A stretch of DNA of 64,000 nt, from positions 544 through 64,543 of the forward strand of contig JAFVVP010000001.1 in NCBI GenBank assembly GCA_017502135.1, in the 5' to 3' direction. The stretch is from Clostridia bacterium. Lineage in GTDB: Bacteria > Bacillota > Clostridia > Oscillospirales > CAG-272. The stretch's first letter is position 1, and every line of letters begins with the position of its first letter. The notes below the pieces were generated by a model. It was not told the origin of the DNA, ran no database searches, and saw only the letters and a program-made list of their open reading frames with translations. A program made the translations under genes and the position numbers. Shown here piece by piece: positions 5,908 to 24,282 of this stretch.

Positions 5908-7515
5908 TTACTTCGGCTGAATAACAAGTGCCAGATCGCCCACGTTAAGCGGACGTTTTGTCAAGCCGCCTTCGGCGATATGATAGGTGAGCGTTATAGT
6001 GTTCTTGCCGCATTTCAGGTAAGACGGGGGAATGTCGATCTCATTTTTGCAGATGTCCCACCACCGGTCGATGCGTGCCAAATGCAGACGGTTGTAGCCC
6101 TTGATAGTGCCACTACTCGCGGGGAGGATCGGCTCGTCATCCGGAGACCAGTAAAGTTCCTTTTCGGTCAGCGTGATCTCGTGCCCATTTACGGAGAGGG
6201 TAACCGTTTCCAGTGCGGTAAGTCCTCTGGCGTGGATTACAAACGTGGCTTTCTCGATATTTTCGGGGTCGTCGCCGATCATAACGGAATGGGTGAAGGG
6301 GTTATCCTCCTTCGTCAGCTCGGCCGGGAGTTTGTTCAGATAGTCAAAAAAGTATTCCTTTTCCGCATGGGGAAGGAAATCCGCGTTCGCAATGGTGTCG
6401 AGCAGGGGATGCCAGATTTGCTCTCCCTTTTTTTTCATAGTGCCGGAAGAGGTGGCAAGTACCACCGCATTAGCTCCCGCCTGGATGCCGGCGAGCGCCC
6501 GCGCGTAATGTCGACGGGGCAGCACGGGGCGATCTTTGACGCCGCTGAGACCGGAACGAATGTCATTGGGATTGGGGTCGGTGGTGATTCGAGCGCAGGG
6601 AATGCGGATATGTGTGGCAACGCGGCAATTCGTGCCTTCGCATTCTTTGAGGAATTCCTCCACAGGAACACCGAACGTCAGATTGGGACGGAGATAGGAG
6701 GGTACGATCCAATCGATAAGCCCTTCCTTGACCCAGTCGCGCCACGCCATATAGAGCCGTTCTTGTGCATCCGGCTCCACGCGGACGGCGAGATCAATAT
6801 ATACGCCGCGCTTTTCGCCTTCTTCGTTCAGCACCTGACGAGCACTGCGGATGAAATCTGTCATATAGTGTCCGTCAGCCTTGGGATCAAAGAAGAAGGG
6901 GGGGTACACGCAGAAATCGAGCTCAATGCCGTCAATGTCGTGTTCGGCTACCTCGCGGATGATGGCAAGCTTGAAATCCCGTACTTCTTTGTGCTTGTAA
7001 TCAAGGAACGGATAGTTGGCGGGGGTACCGTCCGGTTTCGGAATGCGGTATTCGGGGTGTTCTTTGTTGAACTTGCCTACGAAGATGGCGTAGGTGAAAT
7101 TATCCTCGCTTACGGGTCCGTATTCGTGATTCATTTCAAAGCGTGCCCACGGAATGACGCCTATCTCGCGGCACTTCTTTGCCATAAGGTTAAGACCGTC
7201 CGAGCCGGTGTCAATACATTTTTGAATCCAATCCCGTGCAGCCAAATCACCCGGACGGCAGATTCTTTGAGCGAGCGGGGAGGCATCACGCATAAACACG
7301 TCGCCAACCTTCGTATCGTAGGCGAAAACGCTGCCGGGGCCAATGCCGATAAGCTTTACTTTTACGTCGGGATAATCTCTAAGGTATCCCACGTTGCGTT
7401 CAAGAAATTCCTCAATGGAGGCGGTGGCGGCATCACGACCGCAGTACTGAGAAAATCCGTCATCTCGAAGAATCAGAAACGGTTCGTTTTCGGGAAGGGT
7501 ATTTCTTTTCATCAT
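5908..7515 (-). CDS. Putative glycoside-hydrolase-like TIM-barrel protein (function uncertain)
   Basis: Long ORF 5908-7605. The likely start is MMKRNT at 7515, which has an upstream GAAAGG. IDGIELDF and alternating beta/alpha character suggest a GH-like (GHL10-type) barrel. C-terminal beta-rich domain. Confidence 0.6.
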   Translation of the reverse strand: MMKRNTLPENEPFLILRDDGFSQYCGRDAATASIEEFLERNVGYLRDYPDVKVKLIGIGPGSVFAYDTKVGDVFMRDASPLAQRICRPGDLAARDWIQKCIDTGSDGLNLMAKKCREIGVIPWARFEMNHEYGPVSEDNFTYAIFVGKFNKEHPEYRIPKPDGTPANYPFLDYKHKEVRDFKLAIIREVAEHDIDGIELDFCVYPPFFFDPKADGHYMTDFIRSARQVLNEEGEKRGVYIDLAVRVEPDAQERLYMAWRDWVKEGLIDWIVPSYLRPNLTFGVPVEEFLKECEGTNCRVATHIRIPCARITTDPNPNDIRSGLSGVKDRPVLPRRHYARALAGIQAGANAVVLATSSGTMKKKGEQIWHPLLDTIANADFLPHAEKEYFFDYLNKLPAELTKEDNPFTHSVMIGDDPENIEKATFVIHARGLTALETVTLSVNGHEITLTEKELYWSPDDEPILPASSGTIKGYNRLHLARIDRWWDICKNEIDIPPSYLKCGKNTITLTYHIAEGGLTKRPLNVGDLALVIQPK

Positions 7516-7680
7516 GGAATTGCCTTTCTTTTTGGAGAAGAATTTTTCAAAGGATATGTAAATCTCCGCTGAGGTCATTATACCACGTGCTTTCGTGTGA
7601 TTCAATAGGTAAGGGGAAAAAAGTACGGACTATGGTCATTGTTTTCAGATCTACAGCGGAAGTACATACCTTTGAAAATG

Positions 7681-7719
7681 AAAAAAAGACCACCACTTGA
7701 TTTTCCTCAAATGGTGGCC
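7681..7719 (-). terminator. Orphan rho-independent terminator directly downstream (minus sense) of a 12-nt tmRNA 3'-end remnant
   Basis: CCACCAcTTGA-ttttcc-TCAAaTGGTGG stem, followed on the minus strand by a 7-U run (plus-strand A-run 7681-7687). No minus-strand gene ends here. Confidence 0.55.
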
Positions 7720-7724
7720 TGGAA

Positions 7725-7736
7725 TGGTGGAGGCGA
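7725..7736. repeat. Putative att core (left copy): TGGTGGAGGCGA, identical to the 3' terminal 12 nt of ssrA at 25845-25856
   Basis: Exact 12-bp direct repeat in the same orientation, followed by an orphan terminator in the position expected for a displaced tmRNA 3' end. Confidence 0.5.
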
Positions 7737-8010
7737 ACCTCGGTCAAAAAAGGTTGATAATCTGGGGAATTTGCTCACGAATCTGCAGCGTACGGAAGTG
7801 GTTGTGCCGAATACGACGTACAAGGTGTTCGTGATCGGACGGCGGGTACTCAACTACTGCGGCGGGTTTGGCGTGGAGGAGTAAAACTATCAAAATCTAA
7901 TAATCAAAACTACGGCAGTTTAGGTTTGAAAGCCCTACAATCTGCCGTGGTTTTTGCTTTTACGACGCAGTGAATGTACCGTATAATTCCGCATATTATT
8001 CCTCAAATCA

Positions 8011-8039
8011 TTGACATCGTGCCGATAATGTGCTATAAT
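8011..8039 (+). promoter_or_regulatory. Consensus sigma-70-type promoter for the fic / R-M array
   Basis: TTGACA (8011-8016), 17-nt spacer, TATAAT (8034-8039), about 75 nt upstream of the fic ATG. Confidence 0.6.
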
Positions 8040-8047
8040 TATACTGA

Positions 8048-8089
8048 TATATTATAATTATTTTCACTTATATTATAATTATTTTCACT
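8048..8089. repeat. Perfect 2 x 21-bp tandem direct repeat (TATATTATAATTATTTTCACT) between promoter and fic
   Basis: 8048-8068 equals 8069-8089 exactly. The position suggests an operator. Confidence 0.8.
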
Positions 8090-8114
8090 CTTACAGACGA
8101 AGAGGTGCAGATAT

Positions 8115-8987
8115 ATGGCAATGAGAACACATGAAGCAGCTGAAAAATGGGGCATCACCGCGCGACGAGTACGTGTGCTTTGCGTAAATGGTCAGATCGA
8201 CGGTGCATGGCGCGAGGGCAAGATCTGGTACATCCCCGACAACGCTCCCAAGCCTGCTGACGGGCGAATCCGCAGTAAAGAAACGCTGATTGTGCAGATT
8301 GAAAGAAAAAAGGCGGAGCTGGATACTCGCCGTCCGCTGACCGAAGGCGAAGTCGCCCGGTTCAACGAAGATTTTATGATCGAGTACACCTACAACTCCA
8401 ACGCAATTGAGGGGAACACGCTCACTCTTCGCGAAACAGATATGGTGCTGAAGGGCTTGACCATTGATCAGAAACCGCTGAAGGATCACATGGAAGCGGT
8501 CGGCCACAAGGATGCCTTCTACTTTATCTGCGACCTCGTGAAGGATAATATTCCCCTCTCCGAGTCGGTCATCAAGCAGATTCACACGCTTGTGTTGGCG
8601 GATAAGCCGATGGATCGCGGTGTTTATCGCCGTGTCCCCGTTCGCATCATGGGCGCGAAGAACGAGCCTGTGCAGCCGTATATGATCGAGCCGAGGATGT
8701 ATGAGCTGATGCAGAAATACGCGGCGGACGAGCGAAATATCGTAGAGAAGCTCGCGGATTTGCACGTCGAATTTGAATCGATCCATCCGTTCATCGACGG
8801 CAACGGCAGAACCGGACGGCTGATAGTGAATCTGGAACTGATGAAAGCCGGCTATCCGCCGATTGATGTTAAGTTTACTGATCGGATGCGGTATTATGAG
8901 GCATTTGAGGATCGCGATGAAATGGCGCGGTTGTTTGGGGAGTATCTCAGTAAACGGTTGGATCAGTATTTGGAAGTACTTAAGTAA
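8115..8987 (+). CDS. fic: Fic-family protein with an N-terminal HTH (excisionase/MerR-like) domain
   Basis: Fic motif HPFIDGNGRTGRL. Upstream inhibitory-type motif SNAIEGN. N-terminal WGITARRVRVLCVNGQIDGA HTH. Confidence 0.9.
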   Translation: MAMRTHEAAEKWGITARRVRVLCVNGQIDGAWREGKIWYIPDNAPKPADGRIRSKETLIVQIERKKAELDTRRPLTEGEVARFNEDFMIEYTYNSNAIEGNTLTLRETDMVLKGLTIDQKPLKDHMEAVGHKDAFYFICDLVKDNIPLSESVIKQIHTLVLADKPMDRGVYRRVPVRIMGAKNEPVQPYMIEPRMYELMQKYAADERNIVEKLADLHVEFESIHPFIDGNGRTGRLIVNLELMKAGYPPIDVKFTDRMRYYEAFEDRDEMARLFGEYLSKRLDQYLEVLK

Positions 8988-9000
8988 AGGGGATAAAAAT

Positions 9001-9801
9001 ATGAAATTTGATTTTTCAACACCAATGACAATATATGAATTGTTAGCAATAATATTGGCAGCATTAGCACTTGTAATTCCGTTTTTTAAGTGGATATACG
9101 ATAAGTATATTCGAAAGCTTAAATTTAATTTTCTTGCTTCTGGAAAGTTATCAGTGTTTTTCAATAAAAGCGGAGCCTATGTTTCTCTTGGCGGTGTTTA
9201 TGAAGCAAAGAACAAAACTGCTGCAGTAAAAAACATATCCGCAAAAATTAAAAGGACTTCTGACAAGGCGATATTATCGTTGAGATGGTCTACCTTCCAA
9301 TCTCCGGTGTTTAGACAAATTGCAGGAAATTACGAAACATCATTTGAAACAGCTCATCCTTTCAAAGTTGAGGCAGACACATTAACTCCTGTATTTGTCG
9401 AATTTGAAAATGCAGAACAAAATTCTGGCGAAATAATAAATTCGATTATTAATCCCTTACATAAAAAAGCTAATAGTGATATGAATACTCTAAACATCTC
9501 TGTGCAGGCATATGACCCATCCTACAGAGCGAGCACGGAGTATAAAAACGCCTTAATTGCAATGAATGACATATTCTTTTGGAAGCCGGGGGACTATACC
9601 ATCAAATTGATTACAGAGTATAACAATTCCACATTTTCATGTTATGGTGAATTCAGTTTGACGAAAGAAGACTCAGAAAAATTGCGCGCTAATATTGAAG
9701 AATTATTTGTTGAGCCTCTTGCTAATAAAATCAACTGCAGAATAACCGTTAACACGGTATCAAAAGAGTTTAAACTTGATAATCAATCACGCAAGGAATA
9801 A
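9001..9801 (+). CDS. Hypothetical membrane-anchored protein (one N-terminal TM helix, beta-rich C-terminal domain)
   Basis: ATG at 9001 follows AAAGGGGA. LLAIILAALALVIPFF is a TM segment. AT-rich. Lies 13 nt after the fic stop and 3 nt before the next ATG. Confidence 0.7.
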   Translation: MKFDFSTPMTIYELLAIILAALALVIPFFKWIYDKYIRKLKFNFLASGKLSVFFNKSGAYVSLGGVYEAKNKTAAVKNISAKIKRTSDKAILSLRWSTFQSPVFRQIAGNYETSFETAHPFKVEADTLTPVFVEFENAEQNSGEIINSIINPLHKKANSDMNTLNISVQAYDPSYRASTEYKNALIAMNDIFFWKPGDYTIKLITEYNNSTFSCYGEFSLTKEDSEKLRANIEELFVEPLANKINCRITVNTVSKEFKLDNQSRKE

Positions 9802-9804
9802 TAT

Positions 9805-10716
9805 ATGTCAGATATATGGTCATTATTAAAAAACGCGAACGATGCATTAAAACCGAATTTTCTATGTGTCCCACCATATCGTTGCGTTAATGGTGAATAC
9901 CTCAATGAGATTAACGAATCCATTTCCGCTGGAAAAGATGCATCGTTGAAAGTTCGTGGCAGCATTAACCTTCCGTGGCAAAGAGCCTATCAGTTTGAAT
10001 ATCGCTATAAGAAATGCAAAATCTTTGAACCATTTATGCCTGCAATAGAGTATGCAACTTACGATGCAATGGAAGGAAATTGGATATGCGCATATTTAAG
10101 TTTTCTTGCTGTTGTGGAAGCAGTATTGCGAAAATGGGCAGATGAACAATCCCTTACATTCGAAAGAATGAAAGGAATTGCCGCGGCATTAGTGAAGCAT
10201 ATGCAGTCACAAAAATATTTTCCCGATGAACGCATTGCTATAACAGATGGATATATCGATTATCTTCAATATATCCTTTGCGAAGTTCTTTACGAAGGGT
10301 TCGACGGATACAAACTCAAGTCCTTTTCAGATATATTCAATCGAAATCTATCCTTGCACAAACTCGAAGGTGTCATGGATATTTCCGAAGGGCTGTCCAA
10401 TGTAACCCGTATCATGTTAGTGTTAGATATCATCGCAGAATTATACTTCATGCAAAATCCGGAAGAATATTGGACAACCACTTTTCACGCAGATCCTGAA
10501 AATAATCCCGATTTTCAATTGCGTTGGAAATTATACATAAAACATTCCATGTTGGCTATCGGTCCAAACGACAGACTAATTATTCAAAATGCGCTGTTAA
10601 ATTATGTTGATGATGATATCAAAAAGGCGACAACTGCAAAATTAGATTTGGAAATCAAATTATTATCCGGCAAATTTTTCACAGGAGAAAACCACTATGG
10701 CAAAGAAAAAAGTTGA
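9805..10716 (+). CDS. Hypothetical alpha-helical protein with an RNxxxH (HEPN-type Rx4H) motif
   Basis: 303-aa ORF with RNLSLH at residues 180-185 (nt 10342-10359). Overlaps the hsdM start by 20 nt. No other family recognised. Confidence 0.7.
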   Translation: MSDIWSLLKNANDALKPNFLCVPPYRCVNGEYLNEINESISAGKDASLKVRGSINLPWQRAYQFEYRYKKCKIFEPFMPAIEYATYDAMEGNWICAYLSFLAVVEAVLRKWADEQSLTFERMKGIAAALVKHMQSQKYFPDERIAITDGYIDYLQYILCEVLYEGFDGYKLKSFSDIFNRNLSLHKLEGVMDISEGLSNVTRIMLVLDIIAELYFMQNPEEYWTTTFHADPENNPDFQLRWKLYIKHSMLAIGPNDRLIIQNALLNYVDDDIKKATTAKLDLEIKLLSGKFFTGENHYGKEKS

Positions 10717-12301
10717 AGAAAAAATAAATCTTGATTCGATACTGTTCAAGTGTCGTGATATACTGCGTGCGGCGCGCAATTCGGGCTCGTTTTTTGAAAA
10801 GCGCGATATGATGCTGACGCTCGTGTTCTTGCGCTTCATTGGCGAGAAATTTGAGGACGGCGTTGAAAAGCTCCGTCAGGATCTTATTGCCCAGGGACTC
10901 GATCCCGATGATGAGGAAATCTTCGCGGCGTTCTTTGATGACGCTACCTTCACGGACGGTACGTATAACCTTCCCGTAGAAGCTCGCTGGTCTACCATCA
11001 TCAATACCCCTGCGCCCGGACTCAACGTTGCTCTTGACACTGCCCTTCACAGCATTGCTACGAGCAGTAAACAGCTCAAAGGATGCTTTGTCGAGGGTAC
11101 TTTCACTACGCGAAATCTCGCCGCTAACGACATCAAAAAGATCGTAGACGAAGTCAATAAGATCAGCCACAAGGCGTTTGGCGAGGAAAAAGACCTCATC
11201 GGACGTGTATACGAATACTTCCTCAAGGAATTTGCCGTAAACGCGACCAAAGAGGAAGGTGAGTTCTATACCCCTCACGATGCCGTGCAGTTGATCGCCG
11301 CTATGATCGAGCCTTTTGACGGTACACTCTATGACCCTTGTTGCGGTTCGGGAGGTATGTTCATTCAGAGTACCGACCTTATCCGTGAAAAGCGCGGTGA
11401 TATCAGCCGTATCAATATTTACGGTCAGGAGAAAGAGCCTGCAACCTATCGCCTTGCAAAAATGAACCTCGCTTTGCGCGGTATCAGCCACAATCTGGGT
11501 GACGAGGCTGACTCTACCTTTACCCACGACCTTCACAAAGGTCTCTACTTCGATTACATCATGGCGAACCCGCCCTTTAACCTCAAGGGATGGTACGATG
11601 AAAATCTCAAAAATGACTCCCGTTGGGCAGATTACGTAACCCCTCCCGAAAGCAACGCCAACTATGCCTGGATCCTTCATATGCTCTCTCACTTGAAAGC
11701 AACCAAGGGTGTAGCAGGCTTCCTTCTTGCCAACGGTGCGCTCGGTGACAGCGATACTTTGGAAATTCGTAAAAAGCTCATTCAGAATGACAAGGTAGAA
11801 GCTATTATCATTCTCCCTCGTGAGCTCTTTATTACCACCGATATCAGCGTTACACTTTGGATTTTGAATCAGAACAAGAAGGGCGGCGAATACCACGGCA
11901 GAACTCTGCGCAGCCGCGAGAATGAAATTCTCTTTATGGATCTTCGTACTTGGACAGAAAACCCCGTTAAGAACGAGGGTAAAAAGAAAATATTCTTGAG
12001 CGATGAACAGATTCAGAGAGCCGCAGACATCTACCATACTTGGCAAAACGAAGGAACGGATGGAACAAATTATGCTGTGCCCGAACTGTATCGTAGTGTA
12101 AGCAAGGAGATTATTGAAGGACAGGGCTGGAGCCTTGTTCCCAGTAAGTATATTGAGTTTATCGACCACGACTTGGATATTGATTTCAATGCTGAAATGA
12201 GCCGTATTCAGGCAGAAATGCGCGATGTTCTCGCACAGGAAAAGCAGTCTCAAAAGATGCTTGAGGATGCTTTTAGGGGGATTGGATATGGCATTAACTA
12301 A
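10697..12301 (+). CDS. hsdM: Type I restriction-modification system, DNA methyltransferase subunit M
   Basis: HsdM N-terminal domain, AdoMet motif DPCCGSGGM, and catalytic NPPF (IMANPPFNLKGW). Confidence 0.95.
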   Translation: MAKKKVEEKINLDSILFKCRDILRAARNSGSFFEKRDMMLTLVFLRFIGEKFEDGVEKLRQDLIAQGLDPDDEEIFAAFFDDATFTDGTYNLPVEARWSTIINTPAPGLNVALDTALHSIATSSKQLKGCFVEGTFTTRNLAANDIKKIVDEVNKISHKAFGEEKDLIGRVYEYFLKEFAVNATKEEGEFYTPHDAVQLIAAMIEPFDGTLYDPCCGSGGMFIQSTDLIREKRGDISRINIYGQEKEPATYRLAKMNLALRGISHNLGDEADSTFTHDLHKGLYFDYIMANPPFNLKGWYDENLKNDSRWADYVTPPESNANYAWILHMLSHLKATKGVAGFLLANGALGDSDTLEIRKKLIQNDKVEAIIILPRELFITTDISVTLWILNQNKKGGEYHGRTLRSRENEILFMDLRTWTENPVKNEGKKKIFLSDEQIQRAADIYHTWQNEGTDGTNYAVPELYRSVSKEIIEGQGWSLVPSKYIEFIDHDLDIDFNAEMSRIQAEMRDVLAQEKQSQKMLEDAFRGIGYGIN

Positions 12302-13385
12302 ATATAAACTTGGCGAGTTAATCAAACAACGCAGAGAGAAATACGACGGTTTAGAAGAGCTTCCTATAAAAGGTGTTGCTCGAGAAGGATTTATCTCACC
12401 TAAGCAGGACGGAGCGGATCTTTCTATCTATAACGTATATTATTTGAATGATTTTGTATTTAATCCCGCAAGAATGGAATTGAATTCTATCGCCCTAAAT
12501 ACGTTTTGGGATAAAGCCATTTGTTCTTCTCTGTATGAAATCTTTTATATCACTCGTACAGATTTGCTGCTTCCTGAATATCTGAATCTATATATAAAAA
12601 GAGATGAATTTGCACGCAAGTGCTGGTTTGAGGCTGTTGGCTCAGCTCGTAACTATTTCAGGGTAGCAGATTTATCAGAATTTGACATCGAACTTCCTGA
12701 CCTTCCCACTCAGCAGAAATATGTTGATATCTACAAAGCAATGGTTGCCAATCAGCAGAGCTACGAGCGTGGATTGAAAGATTTGAAGCTTGTTTGTGAC
12801 GCATACATCGAGAATATAAGTGCAGATGAATATAAATCGATTGGATTATTTATTAAGAGGAATCAAAATAAAAATCAAGAAAAAGTCTTTAACAAAACAC
12901 AGGTTAAAGGATTTAACAATGAAGGTGAGTTTATCAAGCCTATGCGACTGTTTTCAGGAGATATCTCGACATTCAAAGTAATTAAGAAAAACGATTTTGT
13001 TTACAATTCTCGAATAAATAGTACCATAAAAAAATTAAGCGTAGCTCTAAACGAAGGTGATGATTTAATTGTAAGTCCGGCTTATGAATCCTTTTACATA
13101 TGTGATACCGATAAATTAGATCCGTACTACCTATATATGTTGTTGCAAAGAGAACAATTTGCGAAGAAAGTTTTATTCCACTCATTTGGTAGTTCTACGT
13201 TAGTGTTTGGATTTGATAATTTGGGAGAGGTGGAGATTCCGATACCAGATATTCAAATTCAAAGAGCTATTGCAAACATATACAGAACTTATAAAGAACG
13301 AAAAGCTATCAACGAAAAGTTGAAAGCTCAAATTAAAGACATTTGCCCGATACTGATTCAGGGATCATTGGAGGAAGGAAAATAA
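12288..13385 (+). CDS. hsdS: Type I restriction-modification system, specificity subunit S (two TRDs)
   Basis: ATG at 12288 after AGGGGG, overlapping the hsdM end by 14 nt. Two target-recognition halves are separated by conserved helical spacers (QQKYVDIYKAM.. / IQRAIANIYRTY..). Confidence 0.85.
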   Translation: MALTKYKLGELIKQRREKYDGLEELPIKGVAREGFISPKQDGADLSIYNVYYLNDFVFNPARMELNSIALNTFWDKAICSSLYEIFYITRTDLLLPEYLNLYIKRDEFARKCWFEAVGSARNYFRVADLSEFDIELPDLPTQQKYVDIYKAMVANQQSYERGLKDLKLVCDAYIENISADEYKSIGLFIKRNQNKNQEKVFNKTQVKGFNNEGEFIKPMRLFSGDISTFKVIKKNDFVYNSRINSTIKKLSVALNEGDDLIVSPAYESFYICDTDKLDPYYLYMLLQREQFAKKVLFHSFGSSTLVFGFDNLGEVEIPIPDIQIQRAIANIYRTYKERKAINEKLKAQIKDICPILIQGSLEEGK

Positions 13386-13387
13386 TA

Positions 13388-14596
13388 GTGGCATTTAGAT
13401 TAAACATCGATAATATTCTTGAAACCAATATACGAGAATTAAATTCACATGAAATCACAAGTTTTGAATACGAGGATTTGTATAGCGATATAAGCAACGA
13501 GAAGTTGAAAACCGTTTTCACGTGGCTTCATGGCGGATACATGAGTCTTTTCAGAACAATGAACGAAAGACTTCCCACTAATGGATATGGTGCGCACTTT
13601 TGGGCAGAGCCGAGTAGGGAGTTGATTTTTATTATTGAACTTACCATATCTCTCCAAGGCTCTTTGAAAAAGACCGAGTGGGCTTTTTCGATAGACGAAT
13701 ATTACGATGATTTAATTAGGCAATGCCGAGAGTTTTTATCCAATAGTGGCGGTAGCACCCTGCCACCTAATATGAATAAAATAACACTTTGCTACGTAGA
13801 ACCTATTTTCAATCTTACAGAATCAATGGTTGTTAGCGGTGAGAGTCATTCTTTTGTTTCGAATTTAAAACCTATTGGAAATGGCTCTTACGCCAATGTG
13901 TTCCGATATACTGATGAATTTTACCACAGAGATTTCGTGCTTAAAAGAGCGAAAAACGATTTGAACGAAAAAGAGCTTCAACGGTTCAAACGAGAATTTG
14001 AGGAAATGCAATCTCTTCATTCCCCATACATAGTGGAAGTGTACTCGTACAACGAGGCAAGGCACGAATATATAATGGAATTGATGGATTACACTTTGGA
14101 AAATTACATCAAAATTCATAATCAATCCATGACCGTACAGGAACGCAGAAATATAATAATGCAGCTTCTACGTGCTTACGGATATTTATATTCCAAAAAT
14201 ATTTATCATCGCGATATCAGTCCCCAAAATGTGCTTATAAAGCAATATGACGATACCTTGGTGGTCAAACTCTCCGATTTTGGTCTTGTCAAAATAGTGG
14301 ATAGTGATTTAACATCGGAAAACACAGAGATAAAAGGTTCTCTAAATGATCCAGCATTAAAAACAGAGGGATTTGAAAACTATGGTTTGATACACGAACT
14401 GTATGCCATAACGTTACTATTCACATACGTGATGACTGGAAAGACAAACTGGGCAAAAATTAACGATTCTATTATCAAGCCTTTTATGAATAAAGGCACA
14501 AACCCCGATAAATCAAAAAGATTTCAAACGTTGGAGGAACTTGGCGATGCCGTTAAAGCATGTTTGATATCGCTTGAAAGACTACAGCAGTTTTGA
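13388..14596 (+). CDS. Hanks-type Ser/Thr protein kinase with an unknown ~170-aa N-terminal domain, embedded between hsdS and hsdR
   Basis: GTG at 13388 follows GGAGGAAGG (alternative ATG at 13343). Kinase motifs present: G-loop IGNGSYANVF, VLKRAK, YHRDISPQNVL (HRD at 14207-14215) and DFG (14276-14284). Confidence 0.85.
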   Translation: MAFRLNIDNILETNIRELNSHEITSFEYEDLYSDISNEKLKTVFTWLHGGYMSLFRTMNERLPTNGYGAHFWAEPSRELIFIIELTISLQGSLKKTEWAFSIDEYYDDLIRQCREFLSNSGGSTLPPNMNKITLCYVEPIFNLTESMVVSGESHSFVSNLKPIGNGSYANVFRYTDEFYHRDFVLKRAKNDLNEKELQRFKREFEEMQSLHSPYIVEVYSYNEARHEYIMELMDYTLENYIKIHNQSMTVQERRNIIMQLLRAYGYLYSKNIYHRDISPQNVLIKQYDDTLVVKLSDFGLVKIVDSDLTSENTEIKGSLNDPALKTEGFENYGLIHELYAITLLFTYVMTGKTNWAKINDSIIKPFMNKGTNPDKSKRFQTLEELGDAVKACLISLERLQQF

Positions 14597-14610
14597 AACT
14601 GGAGGTAAAA

Positions 14611-17600
14611 ATGGCAAACTTACAAAACTACAACGGACGCTATTGCGAATCTCAATTTGAATATGCGTTCCTCTCATTTTTAGAGGCAGAGGGATGGCAT
14701 TATCTGCACGGCAATAGCATTCCGCGTGAAAATAAAACTGCAGTTTTGTATGCGGATGATATGGAGCAGTTTTTGAGCAAGACCAATACGGATCTGACTG
14801 CCGACGAAATCCATCAGATCATGGACAAGGTGCGCCTTGTCGGTGCGGAGAGTGAGTTCTCCACACTTCATACGGTGTACGGATGGATGGTTGACGGCGT
14901 GCAGTTTGTTCCTCAAAGTGGACTTGCCCGTATGGTTGCGCTCATTGACTTTGAGCATCCCGAAAACAATATCTTCCGTGCAGTAAACCAGTTTACCGTC
15001 GAGTATATCAACAACGGGCAGAAGGAGAACCGCCGTCCCGATATTCTTCTGTATGTCAACGGTATGCCTCTGTGTATTATTGAACTCAAGAACCCTGCCG
15101 ACGCCAACGCAACGATTTTTGATGCCTACGAGCAGATCACCATTCGTTATTGGCGCGATATCCCTCATCTTCTGCATTACTGCCCCTTGGCATGTATTTC
15201 CGATGGTGTGAAAACTCGCCTCGGTACTGTCCACACACCCTACGAGCATTTCTATGCTTGGCGTCGTGTCAACGATGGGGACAAGGTATCCACGCTTCCT
15301 TTTGATGAACTCGAAACCATGATTAAGGGCGTATATGCCCCGGCAAGATTCCTTGAGATCTTCCGTGACTATATTTATTTTCAAGACCGCGAATACGACA
15401 GCGATGAGAAAGAAATCGTCTGCCGTTATCCGCAGTTCTTTGCTGCACGTTTGCTCAAGCAAAGTATCGTAAAATCGGTTATCGAAAAGAGCGGAAAAGG
15501 CGGTACATATTTCGGTGCGACCGGATGTGGTAAAACATACACCATGGCGTTCCTTGCTCGTCAGCTCGCGTTGCGTTGTACCGATGTTCCCGAAATCGGT
15601 TCGCCTACGATTGTAATGATCGTTGACCGTGAGGAACTGCAAAAGCAGGGTGCAAAGCTGTTCACCAAGAGTAAGGAATTCTTAAACCTCGGTGAAGTAA
15701 GCATCGTTCCCACCCGTAAAAAGCTCCGTGAGGAACTCGGCGCACGTGAAAGCGGCGGATTCTATATCTGTACCATTCAGAAGTTCTGCGACCGCGAAGA
15801 TGATAAAATCGGTCTGATCAATGACCGTGCCAATATTATTTGCTTCTCGGATGAAGCCCACAGAACACAGCTTGAGCATGCAAAGACGCTCAAGTTCAGC
15901 AAGGACACCGACGAAAATATGAAAGCTATGGTGTCCAAGCCTTATGCAAAGGTGCTCAAAGAGGCACTGCCCAACGCTACGTTCGTTGGATTTACCGGTA
16001 CGCCCATTTCCGAAACCTATCAGACCTTCGGTGACGAAATTGACCGCTATACCATGGATCAGGCTGTGGCAGATGGATTGACCGTATCTATCAAATACCA
16101 TCCCCGTATTGCCAAAGTCCTGCTCGATCAGGAAAAGGCAAAGGAAATCGAGGCATACTATAAGAAATGCTTTGATGATGGTGCTACCGAAGAAGACGTT
16201 GAAGCAAGTAAGAAAGCAATGAGCTCAATGGAAGTTATCCTTGGCGAGCCTTCTCGTTTGGAACGTTTAGCAGTAGATATCCATGATCACTATGTATCTG
16301 CTTGCGCCAAAGATCCCGACAGAGTGCAAAAAGCAATGGTCGTGTGCTCTTCGAGACCGATTGCATACGCACTTTTAAAGAAATTCCAAGAGAAATATCC
16401 CGAATGGTTCGTGGAAAAAAAGACTCCCGACGGAGTGAAAGTATCCGACGAGGAATTGAACAAGCTGAAGCCCATGCCATTTATGGCAATGGTTGCGAGT
16501 GTGGGCAAAAACGATGAGCCGGATATGTATAACTATCTCGGCGGTGTTAAAAACGGTTGTCGTTCCGAGGATCTTGATGCCGCATTTAAGCAAGACAATT
16601 CCAACTTCCATATCGTAATCGTTGTGGATATGTGGATCACCGGCTTTGACGTTCCTTCTCTGACCTATATGTATAACGATAAGCCTTTGAAGAAGCATCT
16701 GTTGATTCAGACCATAAGCCGTGTCAACAGAAAGTATCCTGGCAAGGATTACGGTTTCATCGTTGACTATATCGGTATTCGCGATAATATGCGTGAGGCT
16801 ATAAAGCAGTACGGTGGCGGCACCTCCATTGCTCCTTCTGCCGATGACGTGGAGCAGGCTACCGAGGTGTTTAGAGAACACATGGACGTTCTCAAGGATC
16901 TGTTTAAGGGGTATGACCTTACGCCATTCCTTGATCCCGAAGGAGATCCCGCTCTGCGTTATAGACTCTTAGCGAAAGCAGCCGAGTACGTATTTATCTC
17001 TACACAGGAATTGAACACGCAGAATAACGACGGCAAGAGTGTTCAGAAGGTATCCTTTAAGACATATTTTCTGAAGACTGTTAAGAGAATGCGTACCGCA
17101 TATGATATTTGTCAGCCCTCGGGTGAACTCGGAGAGGAAGAATCTGCCCTTGCACAGTGCTTTATGGCAATCGCAGGATTTGTCCGTAAGATGAGCGGCA
17201 CAAGCGAGGTGGATGCTGATACTATGAATCGCCACGTTGCGAAGATGGTTGAGGAAGCATTGAAGTATAACGAGGTTGAAAGCGTATTGGAAGACGGCGA
17301 GCAGGAAGATATTTTCAGCCCCGAATATTTCGAGAAGTTGTCTGACGTTAAAATGCCTGCCTCCAAGCTTGAAATCCTTGTAAAAATGCTTCGCAAGCAG
17401 ATCAAGGAATACAGCAAGACAAATCAGATGGCAGCGAAGAAATTCCAAGAGATGCTTGAAGAAACTATTAAGCTGTATCACGAAAGAAGAAAGCACCTCA
17501 CCGCAGAAGAAGCAGGAGAGGCGCAGGAGCACGCTACCGAGGATATTATCAGAAACGCTACCGAACAGGCACTTCGTATTTTGAAGGATATGAATGCCGA

Positions 17601-17940
17601 TCGTGAGAGCTTCCGAAAGATAGGTCTCACGTTTGAGGAAAAGGCATTCTACGATATTTTGATGGCGCTCCGAGATGAATACAACTTTGAGTACGGCACG
17701 GACAAAAAGGTGGATGGTATCGTTATTAACGATAAATGCAAATCCCTCGCTAAAAAGATCAAAGAGATTATCGATACCAAATCTTCCTTTGCAGATTGGC
17801 TCAACAATCAGATCGTCCGTGACCAGCTCAAATTTGATATCAAGGTTTGCTTGGTAAAGAATGGTTATCCTCCGCAGTATAGCCCCGAGGTGTTCCGTAA
17901 AGTTATGGAGCAGGTCGAGAATTTCGAGGAAAATAATTGA
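14611..17940 (+). CDS. hsdR: Type I restriction enzyme, R subunit (helicase/endonuclease)
   Basis: ATG at 14611 after GGAGG. HsdR_N nuclease region, Walker A GATGCGKTYTM, DEAH box FSDEAHRTQ, and a long C-terminal helical domain. Confidence 0.95.
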   Translation: MANLQNYNGRYCESQFEYAFLSFLEAEGWHYLHGNSIPRENKTAVLYADDMEQFLSKTNTDLTADEIHQIMDKVRLVGAESEFSTLHTVYGWMVDGVQFVPQSGLARMVALIDFEHPENNIFRAVNQFTVEYINNGQKENRRPDILLYVNGMPLCIIELKNPADANATIFDAYEQITIRYWRDIPHLLHYCPLACISDGVKTRLGTVHTPYEHFYAWRRVNDGDKVSTLPFDELETMIKGVYAPARFLEIFRDYIYFQDREYDSDEKEIVCRYPQFFAARLLKQSIVKSVIEKSGKGGTYFGATGCGKTYTMAFLARQLALRCTDVPEIGSPTIVMIVDREELQKQGAKLFTKSKEFLNLGEVSIVPTRKKLREELGARESGGFYICTIQKFCDREDDKIGLINDRANIICFSDEAHRTQLEHAKTLKFSKDTDENMKAMVSKPYAKVLKEALPNATFVGFTGTPISETYQTFGDEIDRYTMDQAVADGLTVSIKYHPRIAKVLLDQEKAKEIEAYYKKCFDDGATEEDVEASKKAMSSMEVILGEPSRLERLAVDIHDHYVSACAKDPDRVQKAMVVCSSRPIAYALLKKFQEKYPEWFVEKKTPDGVKVSDEELNKLKPMPFMAMVASVGKNDEPDMYNYLGGVKNGCRSEDLDAAFKQDNSNFHIVIVVDMWITGFDVPSLTYMYNDKPLKKHLLIQTISRVNRKYPGKDYGFIVDYIGIRDNMREAIKQYGGGTSIAPSADDVEQATEVFREHMDVLKDLFKGYDLTPFLDPEGDPALRYRLLAKAAEYVFISTQELNTQNNDGKSVQKVSFKTYFLKTVKRMRTAYDICQPSGELGEEESALAQCFMAIAGFVRKMSGTSEVDADTMNRHVAKMVEEALKYNEVESVLEDGEQEDIFSPEYFEKLSDVKMPASKLEILVKMLRKQIKEYSKTNQMAAKKFQEMLEETIKLYHERRKHLTAEEAGEAQEHATEDIIRNATEQALRILKDMNADRESFRKIGLTFEEKAFYDILMALRDEYNFEYGTDKKVDGIVINDKCKSLAKKIKEIIDTKSSFADWLNNQIVRDQLKFDIKVCLVKNGYPPQYSPEVFRKVMEQVENFEENN

Positions 17941-17951
17941 GAGGAGAAGCT

Positions 17952-19046
17952 ATGACAGAAAAAGGAGTCATTTATATTCTTACAAACCCGTCTTTCCCTC
18001 AATATGTAAAGATCGGCTATGCTGACAATGTGGAATCGCGGTTGAAACAACTGAATAATAGCGAGTGCATTCCTTTTGCTTTCCGTATTTATGCTACATA
18101 CGAAGTTGAGGAAAGACTGACGGATCTGAAGCTCCATGCGCTGATTGACCAGCTCAATCCGAATCTGCGTTCTATCGACGAAGTGGACGGCAAAAAGCGT
18201 GTTCGTGAGTTCTATGCGATGTCGAAGGAACAGGCGTATTCTATCCTTGAAACGATTGCTATTCTCGGCGGGCGCAAGGACAGGCTTCATCTGTATGAGC
18301 CGACCACGGAGGAGAAAAAGAGCGAGAATTTGGCACAGGAGATTGAGGAAGAACACATTGAGCGTCTTTCTCCGTTTGCCTTCTCCAAGTGCAAAATCCC
18401 TGTTGGTGCAACGATTACGTTTATTCATCAGGGCAACGCTAACTCTGGCGCACAATGTACTGTAGTGGATGATAAAACGGTTGACTATCAGGGGCGCAGA
18501 TTATCCCTTTCCGCCCTCGCAACCGAGCTTACAGGAAGCAAATGGGGCGTTGCCGGACCTCGATATTTCAAGTATAACGGCGTATGGCTTAACGAGCTCC
18601 GTGCCAAGGAAGAAGGTTGGAAGGTAACCTCGCGTCTTGATGATGTGTGGATTATTCCTTGCAACCCGAAATATTACGATATAGTCGCTGCGTTTGACCA
18701 CCTCGATGTAATCGAATGGAGTCAATCTACCAACACAACCGTGGGAGATACGGTTTACATATACGTTGGAGAGAAATACAAGTCGATTATGTTCAAATGC
18801 GAGGTTGTTGGTGCGGATCTGTATGGCAATCGTTCCACCGATGACCATCCGTATTATAAGGAACTGGAAAAAGATCCCGACGCTCGATATATGAAGTTGA
18901 AATTGGTCGAGAAATACCCCACCGGTCAGTATCCGCTGAAGGAACTTAAAGAAAATGGACTCACAAGTGTTCAGGGGCGAAGCAAGGCAACCGTGCAGCT
19001 GATGAAGTATTTGGAAAAACAACATTGGAGAAGTGATCTTTATTGA
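17952..19046 (+). CDS. GIY-YIG (T5orf172-type) nuclease domain fused to a C-terminal PUA-like (EVE/ASCH-type) domain
   Basis: N-terminus GVIYILTNPSFPQYVKIGYADNVESRLKQLN. C-terminus WIIPCNPKYYDIV...VGDTVYIYVG. ATG lies 11 nt after the hsdR stop, with a GAGGAG RBS. Confidence 0.75.
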   Translation: MTEKGVIYILTNPSFPQYVKIGYADNVESRLKQLNNSECIPFAFRIYATYEVEERLTDLKLHALIDQLNPNLRSIDEVDGKKRVREFYAMSKEQAYSILETIAILGGRKDRLHLYEPTTEEKKSENLAQEIEEEHIERLSPFAFSKCKIPVGATITFIHQGNANSGAQCTVVDDKTVDYQGRRLSLSALATELTGSKWGVAGPRYFKYNGVWLNELRAKEEGWKVTSRLDDVWIIPCNPKYYDIVAAFDHLDVIEWSQSTNTTVGDTVYIYVGEKYKSIMFKCEVVGADLYGNRSTDDHPYYKELEKDPDARYMKLKLVEKYPTGQYPLKELKENGLTSVQGRSKATVQLMKYLEKQHWRSDLY

Positions 19047-19076
19047 TTTTTAAAATTAATAAAACGAGGCTAATTA

Positions 19077-19937
19077 ATGATTCGCATAATAGAAAAATTT
19101 GAAGATAAGACCCCATCAAACATTGTTTTTGAAACCATAACGCTTTCTTCCGGTGATTCAATAAAGGTGTATACAATTGAAACAGTGCATGATCTAACCC
19201 AATTCATTGGTTATGGAAAGTATATGAATTGTCAAAATCATAATGTTTATTTGCGTGGGCAAACTTCATTGTATAATGGAAAACTAATACCTTCACTTTA
19301 TCGGGAGAAAACAAGTGTCAAAAGCATAACAGAAAATTATAATTTCAGGATGAACAAATTCAAAAGCAGCGTAAAATCATTTCACCAATACGAAAGAAAC
19401 GTTTTAGAACCACTTCTTCAGCATTATGGAATAAAAACGCCTTATATAGATTTGGTTGATAATGTATGGGTCGCGCTTTGGTTTGCATTACATCAAGCGA
19501 AATCTACAATAGTTAATTCACATGAATACATATATTACCATGATAGCAAAGAAAAATATGCATATATATTATTAATAGCTAGTGATGCTAGAGAAGTAAC
19601 AGAATATAAGGGCGTATATAAAGGTGATAAAACAACACTAGTGGATTTAAGAAATGCAACTCCTTCATACTTTTTAAGACCACATGCTCAACATGCATTT
19701 ATGCTTAGAAAGACAACTCCTTTTCCTGAAGACTATAGTGATTTGATTGTAGGAATAGCAAAAATACCTACGGCAATCGGATTCAAGTGGTTGGGAACAA
19801 ATGATTTTTTAACAGTGAATAGCCTTTTCCCGGCCATATATTTTGATTCTGGCTATGAAGTTTTAATGAAAAATTTTCCTGAAGAAAATGCAGGGATAGT
19901 AAAACAATATGGCTCAATACAAGTAATCACTGATTAG
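19077..19937 (+). CDS. FRG-domain protein
   Basis: YLRGQTSLYNGKLIPSLYR and LLQHYGIKTPYIDLVDNVWVALWFA match FRG hallmarks. AT-rich. Confidence 0.7.
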   Translation: MIRIIEKFEDKTPSNIVFETITLSSGDSIKVYTIETVHDLTQFIGYGKYMNCQNHNVYLRGQTSLYNGKLIPSLYREKTSVKSITENYNFRMNKFKSSVKSFHQYERNVLEPLLQHYGIKTPYIDLVDNVWVALWFALHQAKSTIVNSHEYIYYHDSKEKYAYILLIASDAREVTEYKGVYKGDKTTLVDLRNATPSYFLRPHAQHAFMLRKTTPFPEDYSDLIVGIAKIPTAIGFKWLGTNDFLTVNSLFPAIYFDSGYEVLMKNFPEENAGIVKQYGSIQVITD

Positions 19938-20025
19938 ACAGAGCGTATCATTTTTTCACCTATATGATTAATGTTTTGTTCTAAACAAGATGATTATCAT
20001 TGAATGAAAAAGCGGAGTGCTTGTG

Positions 20026-20466
20026 ATGACAAAACAAGATTTTCTTGAATATTGTCTCACCACCTACAGCACCACCCCCGACTATCCATTCGATGAAGAT
20101 TTCGAAATCGCCGTGCTCCGTCACAAGGACAACCACAAATGGTATGCCATCGTGATGCGCGTATCTCGCCGGAAGTTCGGCATCGATAGCGATGAAGTAA
20201 TCGATGTAGTCAACTTGAAGCTGCCGCTGGAGATGTTCGGCTCGTTCGGCGCGGTGAACGGTGTCTATTCGGCGTATCACATAAACAAGGTTCATTGGAT
20301 ATCGATGCTGCTTCCCGATGCGGCGGATGATTTGGTGGAGTTTCTTGTGAATGCGAGCTACGAGGCGACAAAGGACAAAAAGAAAAGCCGGAAAACGGCT
20401 GAATCATCCGTAATCGTTATCAAAAACTTAACACGATTCACGCTGGACTTCCTACATACTCTGTGA
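20026..20466 (+). CDS. MmcQ/YjbR-family DNA-binding protein
   Basis: TTPDYPFDEDFEIAVLRHKDNHKWYAIVM ... YHINKVHWISM is typical of the family. The alternative GTG start at 20017 is less likely. Confidence 0.75.
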   Translation: MTKQDFLEYCLTTYSTTPDYPFDEDFEIAVLRHKDNHKWYAIVMRVSRRKFGIDSDEVIDVVNLKLPLEMFGSFGAVNGVYSAYHINKVHWISMLLPDAADDLVEFLVNASYEATKDKKKSRKTAESSVIVIKNLTRFTLDFLHTL

Positions 20467-20596
20467 TATACTGTGTGCTACCACAAAAAGGAGGCACACA
20501 ATATGCGAAAATCATACACAATTCCATACCAAAAGAGCGGCTCTGCTGCGGTATTCACCGTGCGGAGCCGCTCTTGCTTTATGAAGGAGGCAGAGC

Positions 20597-20875: not shown

Positions 20876-21149
20876 CACAAAGAACACCGCCTGTAACCGC
20901 AACAAACGGCACACGGGCGGTGTTTTGCGTTCCTGCGAGCATCCCCCGCAGAACGTATAAAACAAAGCGAACAACGAGCGAATTTACGCCCCTGTGTGCC
21001 TGAATTTATCAGAAGGACGAGCAGCAATTCTCGTTTTTTCATTTTAGATGAGTTCAAAGTAGGTTCGTATTTTCCACCGTCAACAGTTCGAGTCGGGTCA
21101 ACTACAGCCACTTCGATTTTTATATAAAAATTTTATTCTAAATCGGTTA

Positions 21150-23302: not shown

Positions 23303-24280
23303 ATGGCAATCGTAAAAATGATACCGTCGTCGAGTCCGCTCGGCAATATTTTCAACTATGTTCAAAACAAAGAGAAGACAGAGCCACATCTCATCAGCGG
23401 TAAGGACTGCATGACGGAGAGCGCTCAGGCAGAGTTTGAGATCGTGAAGTCCCGTTTCAACAAGACCGGAGGGCGGAATTACTATCACGTCATCCAATCC
23501 TTTGCACCCGAAGATGACCTCACCCCGGAGGAAGCGCACGACATCGGCATGGAGCTTGCAAGCTTTTTTAACAGTTTTCAGGTGCTCGTTGTCACGCATA
23601 CCGACCGCGGACATCTGCACAATCACCTCGTTGTAAACTCCGTCTCCCACGCGGACGGAAAGAAGCTGCACACCTCGCAGGACGATCTGATGCGGATGAA
23701 ATCTTACTCCAACAAGCTTTGCGCACGGCGTGGACTGTCCACCACCGAAGAAAAAAGCAGTTGGTATCGTCGTGGTGAATGGAAGACAGAACTCATGCGC
23801 GTGGCGCTGCGAGCAATGTTTCTGTCTGAAACGCGGGAGGACTTTATCGAATTTATGGAGAAGCACGGCTATGGTGTGAAGTGGAATCCCGATTATAAAT
23901 ATATAACCTTCTCCACGCCCGAGGGCAAGCGCGTGCGTGACAACAAGCTCTTCGATGAGCGGCTACTTAAAGGCAACCTTGAACTATACTTCGCCATGGG
24001 CGGATGCGGCTCGGTGCTGGGACCGGACTATTGGAACTATCAAACGCCGGCGCACAATGAAAATGCCAAGGAAACGGTCACAACCGGACTGCTGAATCTC
24101 ATTGCTGACCTGCTCTGCCAGGAAGAAGACGGTGGCTATACACCGCGACCACTCACCGAGATGGACAAATGGGAGAAAGAACGGCTCGAAAAGATTCTCG
24201 GCAAGCGGATTTCAAATGAAGCGTACTTATACTACTGCACGAAGGAAGACTACGAACAGTCGGCGGGACTGTCCATGTGA
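23303..24280 (+). CDS. mobA: MobA/VirD2-family relaxase (possibly C-terminally truncated)
   Basis: Relaxase motifs HVIQSFAPED and HTDRGHLHNHLVVNSV. The start abuts the mobC stop. The ORF ends exactly at an abrupt switch to AT-rich DNA. Confidence 0.85.
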   Translation: MAIVKMIPSSSPLGNIFNYVQNKEKTEPHLISGKDCMTESAQAEFEIVKSRFNKTGGRNYYHVIQSFAPEDDLTPEEAHDIGMELASFFNSFQVLVVTHTDRGHLHNHLVVNSVSHADGKKLHTSQDDLMRMKSYSNKLCARRGLSTTEEKSSWYRRGEWKTELMRVALRAMFLSETREDFIEFMEKHGYGVKWNPDYKYITFSTPEGKRVRDNKLFDERLLKGNLELYFAMGGCGSVLGPDYWNYQTPAHNENAKETVTTGLLNLIADLLCQEEDGGYTPRPLTEMDKWEKERLEKILGKRISNEAYLYYCTKEDYEQSAGLSM

Positions 24281-24282
24281 GT

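Follow-up and report, generated by a model that had tools for sequence, protein, structure and literature searches.

Do nine defence-type genes packed on one strand of a clostridial contig form a single defence system, or are they independent modules that share a site? The genes lie in a 64,000-nucleotide (nt) stretch of contig JAFVVP010000001.1 (positions 544 to 64,543 of the forward strand; assembly GCA_017502135.1, a Clostridia bacterium of the Oscillospirales, CAG-272), which was analysed whole and is henceforth referred to as the window; all coordinates are those of the window unless a locus is named. The array comprises the three genes of a type I system of restriction-modification (R-M), namely hsdM, hsdS and hsdR, and six accessory genes. 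These encode a Fic protein with a putative helix-turn-helix (HTH) region, a single-pass membrane protein (henceforth TM), an orphan protein (henceforth P3), a Ser/Thr kinase, a GIY-YIG nuclease with a PUA-like domain and an FRG-domain protein; a yjbR gene is a probable addition. The reading that we favour, and consider likely to be right, is that an intact type I R-M operon on a mobilisable island of ~18 kb has accreted six independent single-gene modules, defensive or candidate, in the three slots that such operons usually offer to cargo. The locus is a heavily loaded but ordinary example of the embedded-defence pattern already described by Payne et al. 2024 (bioRxiv 10.1101/2024.01.29.577857). 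It reveals no new kind of system, and it is not a conserved nine-gene machine.

If the modules were accreted in this way, the upstream slot (5' of hsdM) would hold the HTH-Fic gene with its own strong promoter together with the TM and P3 genes, the middle slot (between hsdS and hsdR) would hold the kinase gene, and the downstream slot (3' of hsdR) would hold the GIY-YIG/PUA-like and FRG genes and probably yjbR. The cassettes would have been inserted seamlessly, with loss of the native hsdM promoter. HsdMSR would methylate host DNA and cut unmethylated DNA, and the GIY-YIG/PUA-like enzyme is predicted to cut, in the manner of type IV enzymes, modified DNA that escapes type I restriction. For Fic, the kinase, TM, P3 and FRG we predict autonomous roles, as modules of the abortive-infection type or back-ups. 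All of these would work in parallel as layers, linked by being transferred and transcribed together rather than by assembly into a fixed machine of several subunits. A preliminary description had proposed a layered or guard-type system rather than independent neighbours. Layered defence, in the sense of several independent modules expressed together, is a sensible and published reading and is the part of that proposal that we retain; the integrated guard is the part that we give up, on the evidence set out below.

Table 1 Features of the array and its borders in the window (aa, amino acids; E-values follow the names of Pfam or PADLOC models)
Feature	Position	Strand	Basis or remark
Terminator of the GHL10-like gene	7687-7720	-	
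Sigma-70 consensus promoter, TTGACA-17-TATAAT with TG extension	8011-8039	+	sole perfect match in the 64 kb window
21-nt element TATATTATAATTATTTTCACT, two tandem copies, between the -10 box and fic	8048-8089	+	
fic (gene 1), HTH-Fic protein, 290 aa	8115-8987	+	Pfam Fic 6e-20; PADLOC PDC-S04 9e-40
TM (gene 2), single-pass membrane protein, 266 aa	9001-9801	+	one hydrophobic segment, aa 5-34, N-terminal
P3 (gene 3), orphan all-alpha protein, 303 aa	9805-10716	+	invariant FNRNLSLHKLEG in an alignment of 26 homologues
hsdM (gene 4), type I N6-adenine methyltransferase, 534 aa	10697-12301	+	N6_Mtase 1e-85; HsdM_N 3.5e-10; MTase_I 1.6e-105
hsdS (gene 5), specificity subunit, 365 aa, full length	12288-13385	+	Specificity_I 4e-80 over aa 4-363; Methylase_S
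Kinase (gene 6), Hanks-type Ser/Thr kinase, 402 aa, GTG start	13388-14596	+	Pkinase 1e-29; mad6, Stk2 and PD-T4-6 models
hsdR (gene 7), restriction/translocase subunit, 1109 aa, full length	14611-17940	+	REase_I 3e-244
GIY-YIG/PUA-like (gene 8): GIY-YIG (T5orf172) nuclease, DUF2924-like middle, C-terminal PUA-like domain (EVE/ASCH/YTH-type), 364 aa	17952-19046	+	
FRG (gene 9), FRG-domain protein, 286 aa	19077-19937	+	Pfam FRG 5e-13; PADLOC PDC-S15 1e-14
yjbR (probable gene 10), MmcQ/YjbR family	20017-20466	+	YjbR 6e-13
First strong stem-loop past the array, 3' of yjbR, candidate terminator	20533-20575	+	
tmRNA (ssrA)	25845-26208	-	Rfam scan

The type I core and its cargo

The nine genes run co-directionally on the + strand from 8115 to 19937, according to the listing of open reading frames (ORFs) and the recomputed junctions. 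The spacings are +13 nt (fic to TM), +3 (TM to P3), -20 (P3 to hsdM), -14 (hsdM to hsdS), +2 (hsdS to kinase), +14 (kinase to hsdR), +11 (hsdR to GIY-YIG) and +30 (GIY-YIG to FRG), which reproduces exactly every value in the junction table of the preliminary description. A purine-rich Shine-Dalgarno-like run precedes every start. GC content alternates along the array, with values of ~0.46-0.52 in fic (.52), hsdM (.47), hsdR (.46) and the GIY-YIG gene (.46), versus 0.32-0.37 in TM (.34), P3 (.37), hsdS (.35), the kinase gene (.37) and FRG (.32).

The core is, as had been claimed, a canonical type I R-M system; it is complete, with intact genes and predicted activity. All three subunits are full length and match type I models strongly. 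HsdS has two target-recognition halves: the Specificity_I match runs almost from end to end and Methylase_S was matched in two stretches. HsdR has its N-terminal nuclease, SF2 translocase and C-terminal parts, with HSDR_N, SWI2_SNF2/ResIII, T1R_D3-like and T1RH-like_C domains in Pfam, and it scores 434 bits against the NCBIfam model TIGR00348, for which the cut-off is 285.

Most identities given earlier to the accessory genes also hold, namely Fic, membrane protein, kinase, GIY-YIG/PUA-like and FRG; the exception is a HEPN label given to P3, which reduces to a motif (see below). The Fic protein matches the PADLOC SoFic model (1e-26) and falls short of the NCBIfam SoFic equivalog cut-off (35 vs 550 bits). 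Its active-site core, HPFIDGNGRTGR at aa 224, is intact and agrees with the AMP-transferase motif HxFx(D/E)GNGRxxR; the inhibitory motif SNAIEG at aa 95 agrees with (S/T)xxxE(G/N). At its N-terminus there is a weak, sub-threshold match to HTH_59 (E 0.0018). The kinase, embedded on the same strand between hsdS and hsdR, has a G-loop (GNGSYA), HRDISPQN and DFG; its GTG start is backed by a homologue in another locus (L014) that begins MGFKLNIDNILE. No family was matched by its N-terminal ~155 aa.

The protein encoded by the eighth gene matches T5orf172 (7e-13) and, over aa 1-221, PADLOC PDC-S57 (7e-97). A sequence search of its C-terminal domain against the Protein Data Bank (PDB) returned only noise; a structural search was needed to identify the domain. 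An AlphaFold (AF2) model searched with Foldseek retrieved the EVE protein 2ar1 (8.6e-5), the ASCH protein 5y6c (1.2e-4), THYN1 with 5mC DNA (1e-3), VcaM4I (2.5e-3) and YTH domains, all with a Foldseek probability of 1.00. The predicted structure thus bears out the earlier description of this protein as a GIY-YIG/PUA fusion, with a C-terminal fold that matches EVE, ASCH, YTH and the VcaM4I reader. The family is large (>6000 homologues), and a three-domain form of ~357 aa is common.

We compared the locus with its relatives by scanning one genome per species with HsdM, which yielded 80 loci (here L003 to L082) whose HsdM is 82-98% identical. Their hosts are Clostridia, Verrucomicrobia, Planctomycetes, Synergistes and Lactobacillales. 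HsdR in these loci is 76-97% identical, across Clostridia, Verrucomicrobia/Opitutales, Planctomycetes, Synergistes, Gastranaerophilaceae and Facklamia. Such identity indicates that the HsdM/HsdR family has spread very recently and broadly by horizontal transfer in gut and rumen communities. An exact look-up of HsdM found only the same locus, in 5 metagenome contigs, and the 12 kb array had no megablast match in plasmid and phage collections.

The cargo around this core is variable. In 30 of 72 loci the gap between hsdS and hsdR is ≤71 nt; the other 42 have 1-3 genes there, nearly all of them co-directional. These genes fall into 26 clusters, among which CAP12/Pycsar-TIR (12 loci), the kinase (8 loci) and AbiJ-like proteins (6 loci) stand beside KAP NTPases, AAA_21, PIN_8, reverse transcriptase, RhuM, HamA with a helicase (Hachiman), GmrSD, AAA_13 and several unannotated clusters. 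The kinase occurs in the gap at 71-91% identity in six loci (L003, L004, L010, L014, L031 and L047), and two further occurrences are more distant. The upstream slot is occupied in 32 of 60 loci, by small Cro/C1 HTH, HTH-DUF3990, AbiEi/AbiEii or AAA_14-DUF4143 genes, and the downstream slot in 15 of 38, by GIY-YIG, HNH, TIR or AAA_5 genes. Across the 80 loci, a short GIY-YIG homologue lies 3' of hsdR in four and a Fic gene lies 5' of hsdM in one or two; TM, P3 and FRG occur in none. Among 32 comparable loci the number of accessory genes ranges from 0 to 6 and is most often 2. The window has 8 by the same criteria and is therefore the most heavily loaded locus in the sample.

Three loci reveal where the cassettes begin and end. 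In the metagenomic locus L083, the promoter with fic (85% nucleotide identity) and P3 with hsdM (86%) are collinear with the window, and the 815 nt that bear TM (8978-9792) are cleanly absent (L083:3050-3059), so that fic and P3 adjoin in the order fic-P3-hsdM. The encoded proteins are 94% (Fic), 85% (P3) and 97% (HsdM) identical to those of the window. The L083 copy of hsdM is truncated after codon 217, with a 63-aa ORF and a gene for a serine recombinase downstream. In L003, the closest hsd locus, homology begins 7 nt before the hsdM ATG and resumes as one block of kinase and hsdR; an extra TIR gene precedes the kinase. In L133, Fic (86%), the GIY-YIG/PUA-like protein (94%) and YjbR (76%) frame a different core, made up of an MmeI-like enzyme, a second methyltransferase, SIR2_2 and DUF3800. 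The order at L133:1321-15298 is Fic, a 241-aa protein, the MmeI-like enzyme (1025 aa), the methyltransferase (617 aa), GIY-YIG/PUA-like, SIR2_2 (1048 aa), DUF3800, YjbR and WYL, which places YjbR near the end of that array as well. The comparison suggests that L133 and the window share an island scaffold in which the R-M core may have been swapped. Together, the GC content of individual genes and the clean cassette boundaries point to modular accretion of the accessory genes.

A conserved partnership of Fic with GIY-YIG, which L133 had prompted us to consider, was rejected: L012, L024, L033 and L042 have the short GIY-YIG gene and no upstream Fic gene. YjbR accompanies the GIY-YIG/PUA-like gene both in the window and in L133, and a published survey reports YjbR/MmcQ-EVE and GIY-YIG-YjbR-EVE fusions (PMC7641849). 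On the strength of this co-occurrence in two loci and of the published fusions, YjbR might be a DNA-binding partner of the PUA-like nuclease.

Transcription of the array

The preliminary description placed the array behind a single consensus promoter, and we found no second perfect TTGACA-17-TATAAT match in the window; 0 of 100 dinucleotide-preserving shuffles contain one. The promoter is kept together with fic in L083 and L133 and belongs to the fic module. The 21-nt element downstream of it is duplicated in tandem in the window and present once in L083, and we consider it a candidate operator; the HTH region of Fic may autoregulate the promoter through this repeat. A ATTATTCC box lies directly 5' of the -35 hexamer in all three fic promoters (window 7990-8010, L083 ~2085-2110, L133 ~1215-1240) and is duplicated in L133. 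An Rfam scan of the 7-27 kb region found the tmRNA only and no leader RNA element.

We also agree that the array lacks internal terminator hairpins. On the + strand between 8040 and 19937 the only terminator-like feature is a weak 5-bp stem at 17089, inside hsdR, and the junctions are too short to leave room for a terminator between the genes. The position of the 3' end is a different matter. The 79-nt spacer between FRG and yjbR (19938-20016) folds no better than its shuffles (z -0.9). The segment 20460-20600, which contains the first strong stem-loop, folds at -55.6 kcal/mol (z -5.2; 0 of 200 shuffles equally stable), and a second strong hairpin follows at 20882-20925, 3' of the DUF6809 gene (z -4.3). 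Since no hairpin separates FRG from yjbR and the first strong one comes after yjbR, the unit probably has ten genes, with yjbR as the tenth. The gene content of the nine-gene array stands, and there is no terminator at its proposed endpoint, 19937.

Co-transcription of the nine genes from one promoter is probable. The seamless junctions, the loss of the hsdM promoter and the lack of an internal terminator make a single polycistronic mRNA most likely; driven by the promoter of the Fic module, it would extend ~12.5 kb through yjbR. The alternative that survives best is that several internal promoters were carried in with the AT-rich cassettes, so that the array is not one unit and the consensus promoter serves mainly fic. 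Internal promoters are frequent in operons of 12 kb, the consensus promoter travels with fic in L083 and L133, and + strand matches to 10 of 12 promoter positions occur at 9025, 14129 and 19315, within AT-rich cargo. Set against this are the junctions of -20 to +30 nt, which include overlaps of the translational-coupling type, the replacement of the region upstream of hsdM up to 7 nt before its ATG, and the lack of an internal terminator. Promoter-like sites overall are not enriched relative to shuffled sequence (43 vs 33 +/- 6 expected) and none is intergenic; their number neither indicates nor excludes internal promoters. On balance we hold separate internal promoters to be possible but doubtful, and retain a single transcript as the working model.

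TM, P3 and the question of a guard

Neither TM nor P3 matched any Pfam, PADLOC or NCBIfam family. Both families are recurrent inside type I R-M operons, and this is the limited novelty of the locus. The TM family has 80 homologue clusters. P3 is a rare family: 1.84 billion proteins yielded 124 representative clusters.

The preliminary description called P3 a HEPN-motif protein. The motif is there: RNLSLH (aa 180-185) is invariant across the 26 homologues and fits Rx4-6H. Support from a HEPN fold or profile is absent. There was no HEPN or Abi Pfam match in the 26 family members (E<=5) or in 10 distant relatives, and the bare Rx4-6H motif occurs by chance 1-5 times in each of hsdM, the kinase, hsdR, the GIY-YIG protein, FRG and yjbR. 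The AF2 model of P3 is all-alpha, with a predicted local distance difference test score (pLDDT) of 82, and the motif region is its lowest-confidence part. A Foldseek search of this model against PDB and BFVD gave nothing better than E 0.5. With Pfam, PADLOC, NCBIfam, and AF2 plus Foldseek all negative, we set the HEPN assignment aside as unproven. Because no profile or fold matches and the bare motif is frequent by chance, we treat "HEPN" here as a motif and not as a demonstrated fold.

Sampled homologue contexts reveal a striking preference of both families for type I operons. TM homologues at 73%, 51%, 51% and 38% identity lie directly after an EcoEI-type hsdR and before hsdS. This makes 4 of 5 sampled homologues that stand between the hsdR and hsdS genes of another type I family, while the fifth, at 48%, lies outside any R-M system. 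P3 homologues at 54-67% identity occupy the hsdR-hsdS interval of a different type I family, with an EcoEI_R_C-type HsdR. One at 52% is solitary and neighbours a SocA/Panacea toxin-antitoxin pair on a mobile element. In two metagenomes, homologues at 40-44% come after genes for a response-regulator-HD-GYP protein and a hybrid histidine kinase, and one of them lies between an MmeI-type R-M system and GmrSD. In the distant P3 loci (L102, L105, L107, L111, L113, L114, L117 and L124) the homologue lies at ~10001-10850 in most. There, P3 homologue, response-regulator-HD-GYP and hybrid histidine kinase form a conserved three-gene unit that is not obviously defensive.

TM and P3 had also been described as a pair. 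A conserved pair was rejected: L083 has fic-P3 without TM, and other loci have TM alone or P3 alone. As the two never occur together outside this locus and its near-identical copies, and each is found without the other among the sampled contexts, they are not a pair.

Could TM and P3 instead depend on the restriction complex? On this view they would form two rare and novel families of accessory or guard factors that depend on type I R-M and, like PrrC, monitor the condition of the Hsd complex or its DNA translocation, with P3 acting through an unrecognised fold around its invariant FNRNLSLHKLEG loop; that they reside almost exclusively in hsd operons, of two unrelated type I families, would then be due to physical partnership and not to hitch-hiking. 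We think this unlikely.

A broader form of the idea makes the whole array one machine, in which TM, P3 and/or the kinase monitor HsdMSR and fire when a phage anti-restriction protein disables it, in the manner of PrrC in EcoprrI. The kinase does occupy the hsdS-hsdR slot, which is the position of PrrC in EcoprrI, and forms one homology block with hsdR in the comparison with L003. TM homologues down to 38% identity keep the position hsdR-TM-hsdS in the other type I family, and P3 homologues of at least 54% identity are inside type I R-M systems in 6 of 7 sampled contexts, in two hsd families. Several findings stand against this: 30 of 72 near-identical cores have no insert and the rest carry unrelated cargo, TM and P3 are each found without the other and outside R-M (L131, L146), and distant P3 relatives belong to operons of two-component systems. 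No protein of the array resembles PrrC, and neither Pfam nor PADLOC finds in the array the AAA_13 or ABC ATPase of a PrrC/RloC-type guard; an AAA_13 protein occupies the hsdS-hsdR slot in L043. The shuffling data do not favour a PrrC-like guard for the array as a whole, and we rate it as quite improbable; for TM, P3 or the kinase, PrrC-like dependence on Hsd is conceivable. In the survey of 80 loci the accessory genes are absent, single or exchanged for unrelated defence genes, which speaks against the integrated array of the preliminary description and agrees with the comparative part of the outcome that it had itself named as refuting.

Membership of a MADS or BREX/Pgl-type system, with methyltransferase, specificity subunit and kinase as obligate partners, is very improbable and effectively refuted by the curated NCBIfam cut-offs: although mad6 is the kinase's best PADLOC match (2.5e-34), hsdM matches mad2, and MAD2, MAD5, MAD6 and PglW are among the weaker NCBIfam matches, these reach only 50 of 720, 21 of 400, 76 of 460 and 43 of 990 bits, respectively, the core is a complete canonical HsdMSR that passes the TIGR00348 cut-off, most of its close relatives lack any kinase, and PADLOC found no homologues of mad1, mad3, mad4 or mad7.

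We return to independent modules on a type I operon as the preferred reading, and note several points that weigh against it. The preference of TM and P3 for type I R-M could mean dependence on the Hsd proteins rather than hitch-hiking, and neither protein has annotated relatives. Defence activity of the accessory genes is predicted here from sequence. Co-transcription is deduced from compaction and from the loss of the hsdM promoter, and the AT-rich cargo genes hold several promoter-like matches of 9-10 out of 12 positions that may be internal promoters. The ORF tiling in the locus survey was crude, as it used only ATG starts and a fixed length cut-off.

The island and its relation to known systems

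The array lies in a patchy low-GC stretch that extends from a GHL10-like gene to the tmRNA gene. The array is followed by yjbR, DUF6809 and AAA_25 ATPase genes, then by NikA/MobC, a relaxase and an IS1595 fragment. A copy of the last 12 nt of the tmRNA gene, TGGTGGAGGCGA (25845-25856), occurs at 7725-7736, just past the terminator of the GHL10-like gene; alone this repeat is statistically weak, with ~0.4 chance matches of any 12-mer from the probe region expected. The recurrence of these 12 nt suggests a mobilisable island of ~18 kb integrated at ssrA, with att-like ends at 7725 and 25845. No integrase gene was seen on the ~18 kb island. The relaxase ORF is only 325 aa long, and a 265-aa ORF that contains part of an IS1595 transposase domain overlaps it (23303-24899); the mobilisation module may be decayed. 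Long antisense ORFs (357-548 aa) at 8091-9164 (-), 10679-12325 (-) and 5980-7572 (+) mirror fic, hsdM and the GHL10-like gene, respectively. They have the look of side effects of coding-strand codon bias and not of genes; the one at 5980-7572, the only one searched, has no Pfam family.

The locus is a clear example of type I R-M operons as landing pads and shared expression platforms for defence genes, and of composite defence arrays that travel on mobilisable islands across phyla. It nominates TM and P3 as new families of candidate "embedded" defence genes. As a compact ten-gene cassette with a single strong promoter it could be cloned whole, although its practical value is modest.

Several known systems resemble parts of the array. 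Stk2, PD-T4-6 and MAD6 share with the kinase a Hanks-type domain with intact catalytic motifs in a defence locus; the similarity is confined to the kinase domain and misses the curated equivalog cut-offs widely. Enzymes that join a PUA-like reader to a nuclease include the modification-dependent VcaM4I/TspA15I group (PMC6765204), and fusions of EVE/PUA-like domains to nucleases, GIY-YIG among them, have been described as modification-dependent restriction enzymes, either predicted or proven (PMC7641849, PMC6765204). The eighth protein resembles such type IV enzymes in combining a nuclease with a C-terminal PUA-like beta-barrel, and differs in that the nuclease is GIY-YIG rather than HNH or PD-(D/E)XK and in having an extra DUF2924-like middle domain.

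A tested parallel for the layout is the RRDM island of enteropathogenic Escherichia coli (EPEC), RptR-hsdMS-DarTG2-hsdR-M48, a type I R-M island of seven ORFs that is expressed from one direct-repeat promoter (PMC12255303). Both are multi-gene type I R-M loci, here apparently with one direct-repeat promoter as well, and in both the product of the first gene has a DNA-binding domain, a putative one in the window. The first gene of the window encodes a 290-aa Fic protein with a weak HTH match, whereas that of the EPEC island encodes the small repressor RptR. The repeats also differ, being 21-nt, AT-rich and 3' of the -10 box in the window and TAGCTA palindromes in EPEC.

The pattern as a whole is that of genes embedded in type I R-M systems. 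Payne et al. found that nested genes are frequent in loci of type I R-M, BREX and DISARM systems and run in the same direction as the system around them in 96.7% of cases; the classical embedded gene is PrrC in EcoprrI, and GmrSD-type enzymes, which attack modified DNA, complement the system in which they lie (bioRxiv 10.1101/2024.01.29.577857). DarTG2 in the RRDM island of EPEC counts as a classical case too (PMC12255303). The locus departs from this pattern in its unusually heavy load and in TM and P3, which lie outside the families of PADLOC, Pfam and NCBIfam. It conforms in other respects: foreign defence genes, co-oriented and tightly packed, lie both between hsdS and hsdR of a canonical operon and at its two ends, the cargo varies among close relatives, and the locus appears to sit on a horizontally acquired island. 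Fic, FRG and the GIY-YIG protein match PDC-S04, PDC-S15 and PDC-S57, respectively, models that were themselves derived from embedded genes (bioRxiv 10.1101/2024.01.29.577857).

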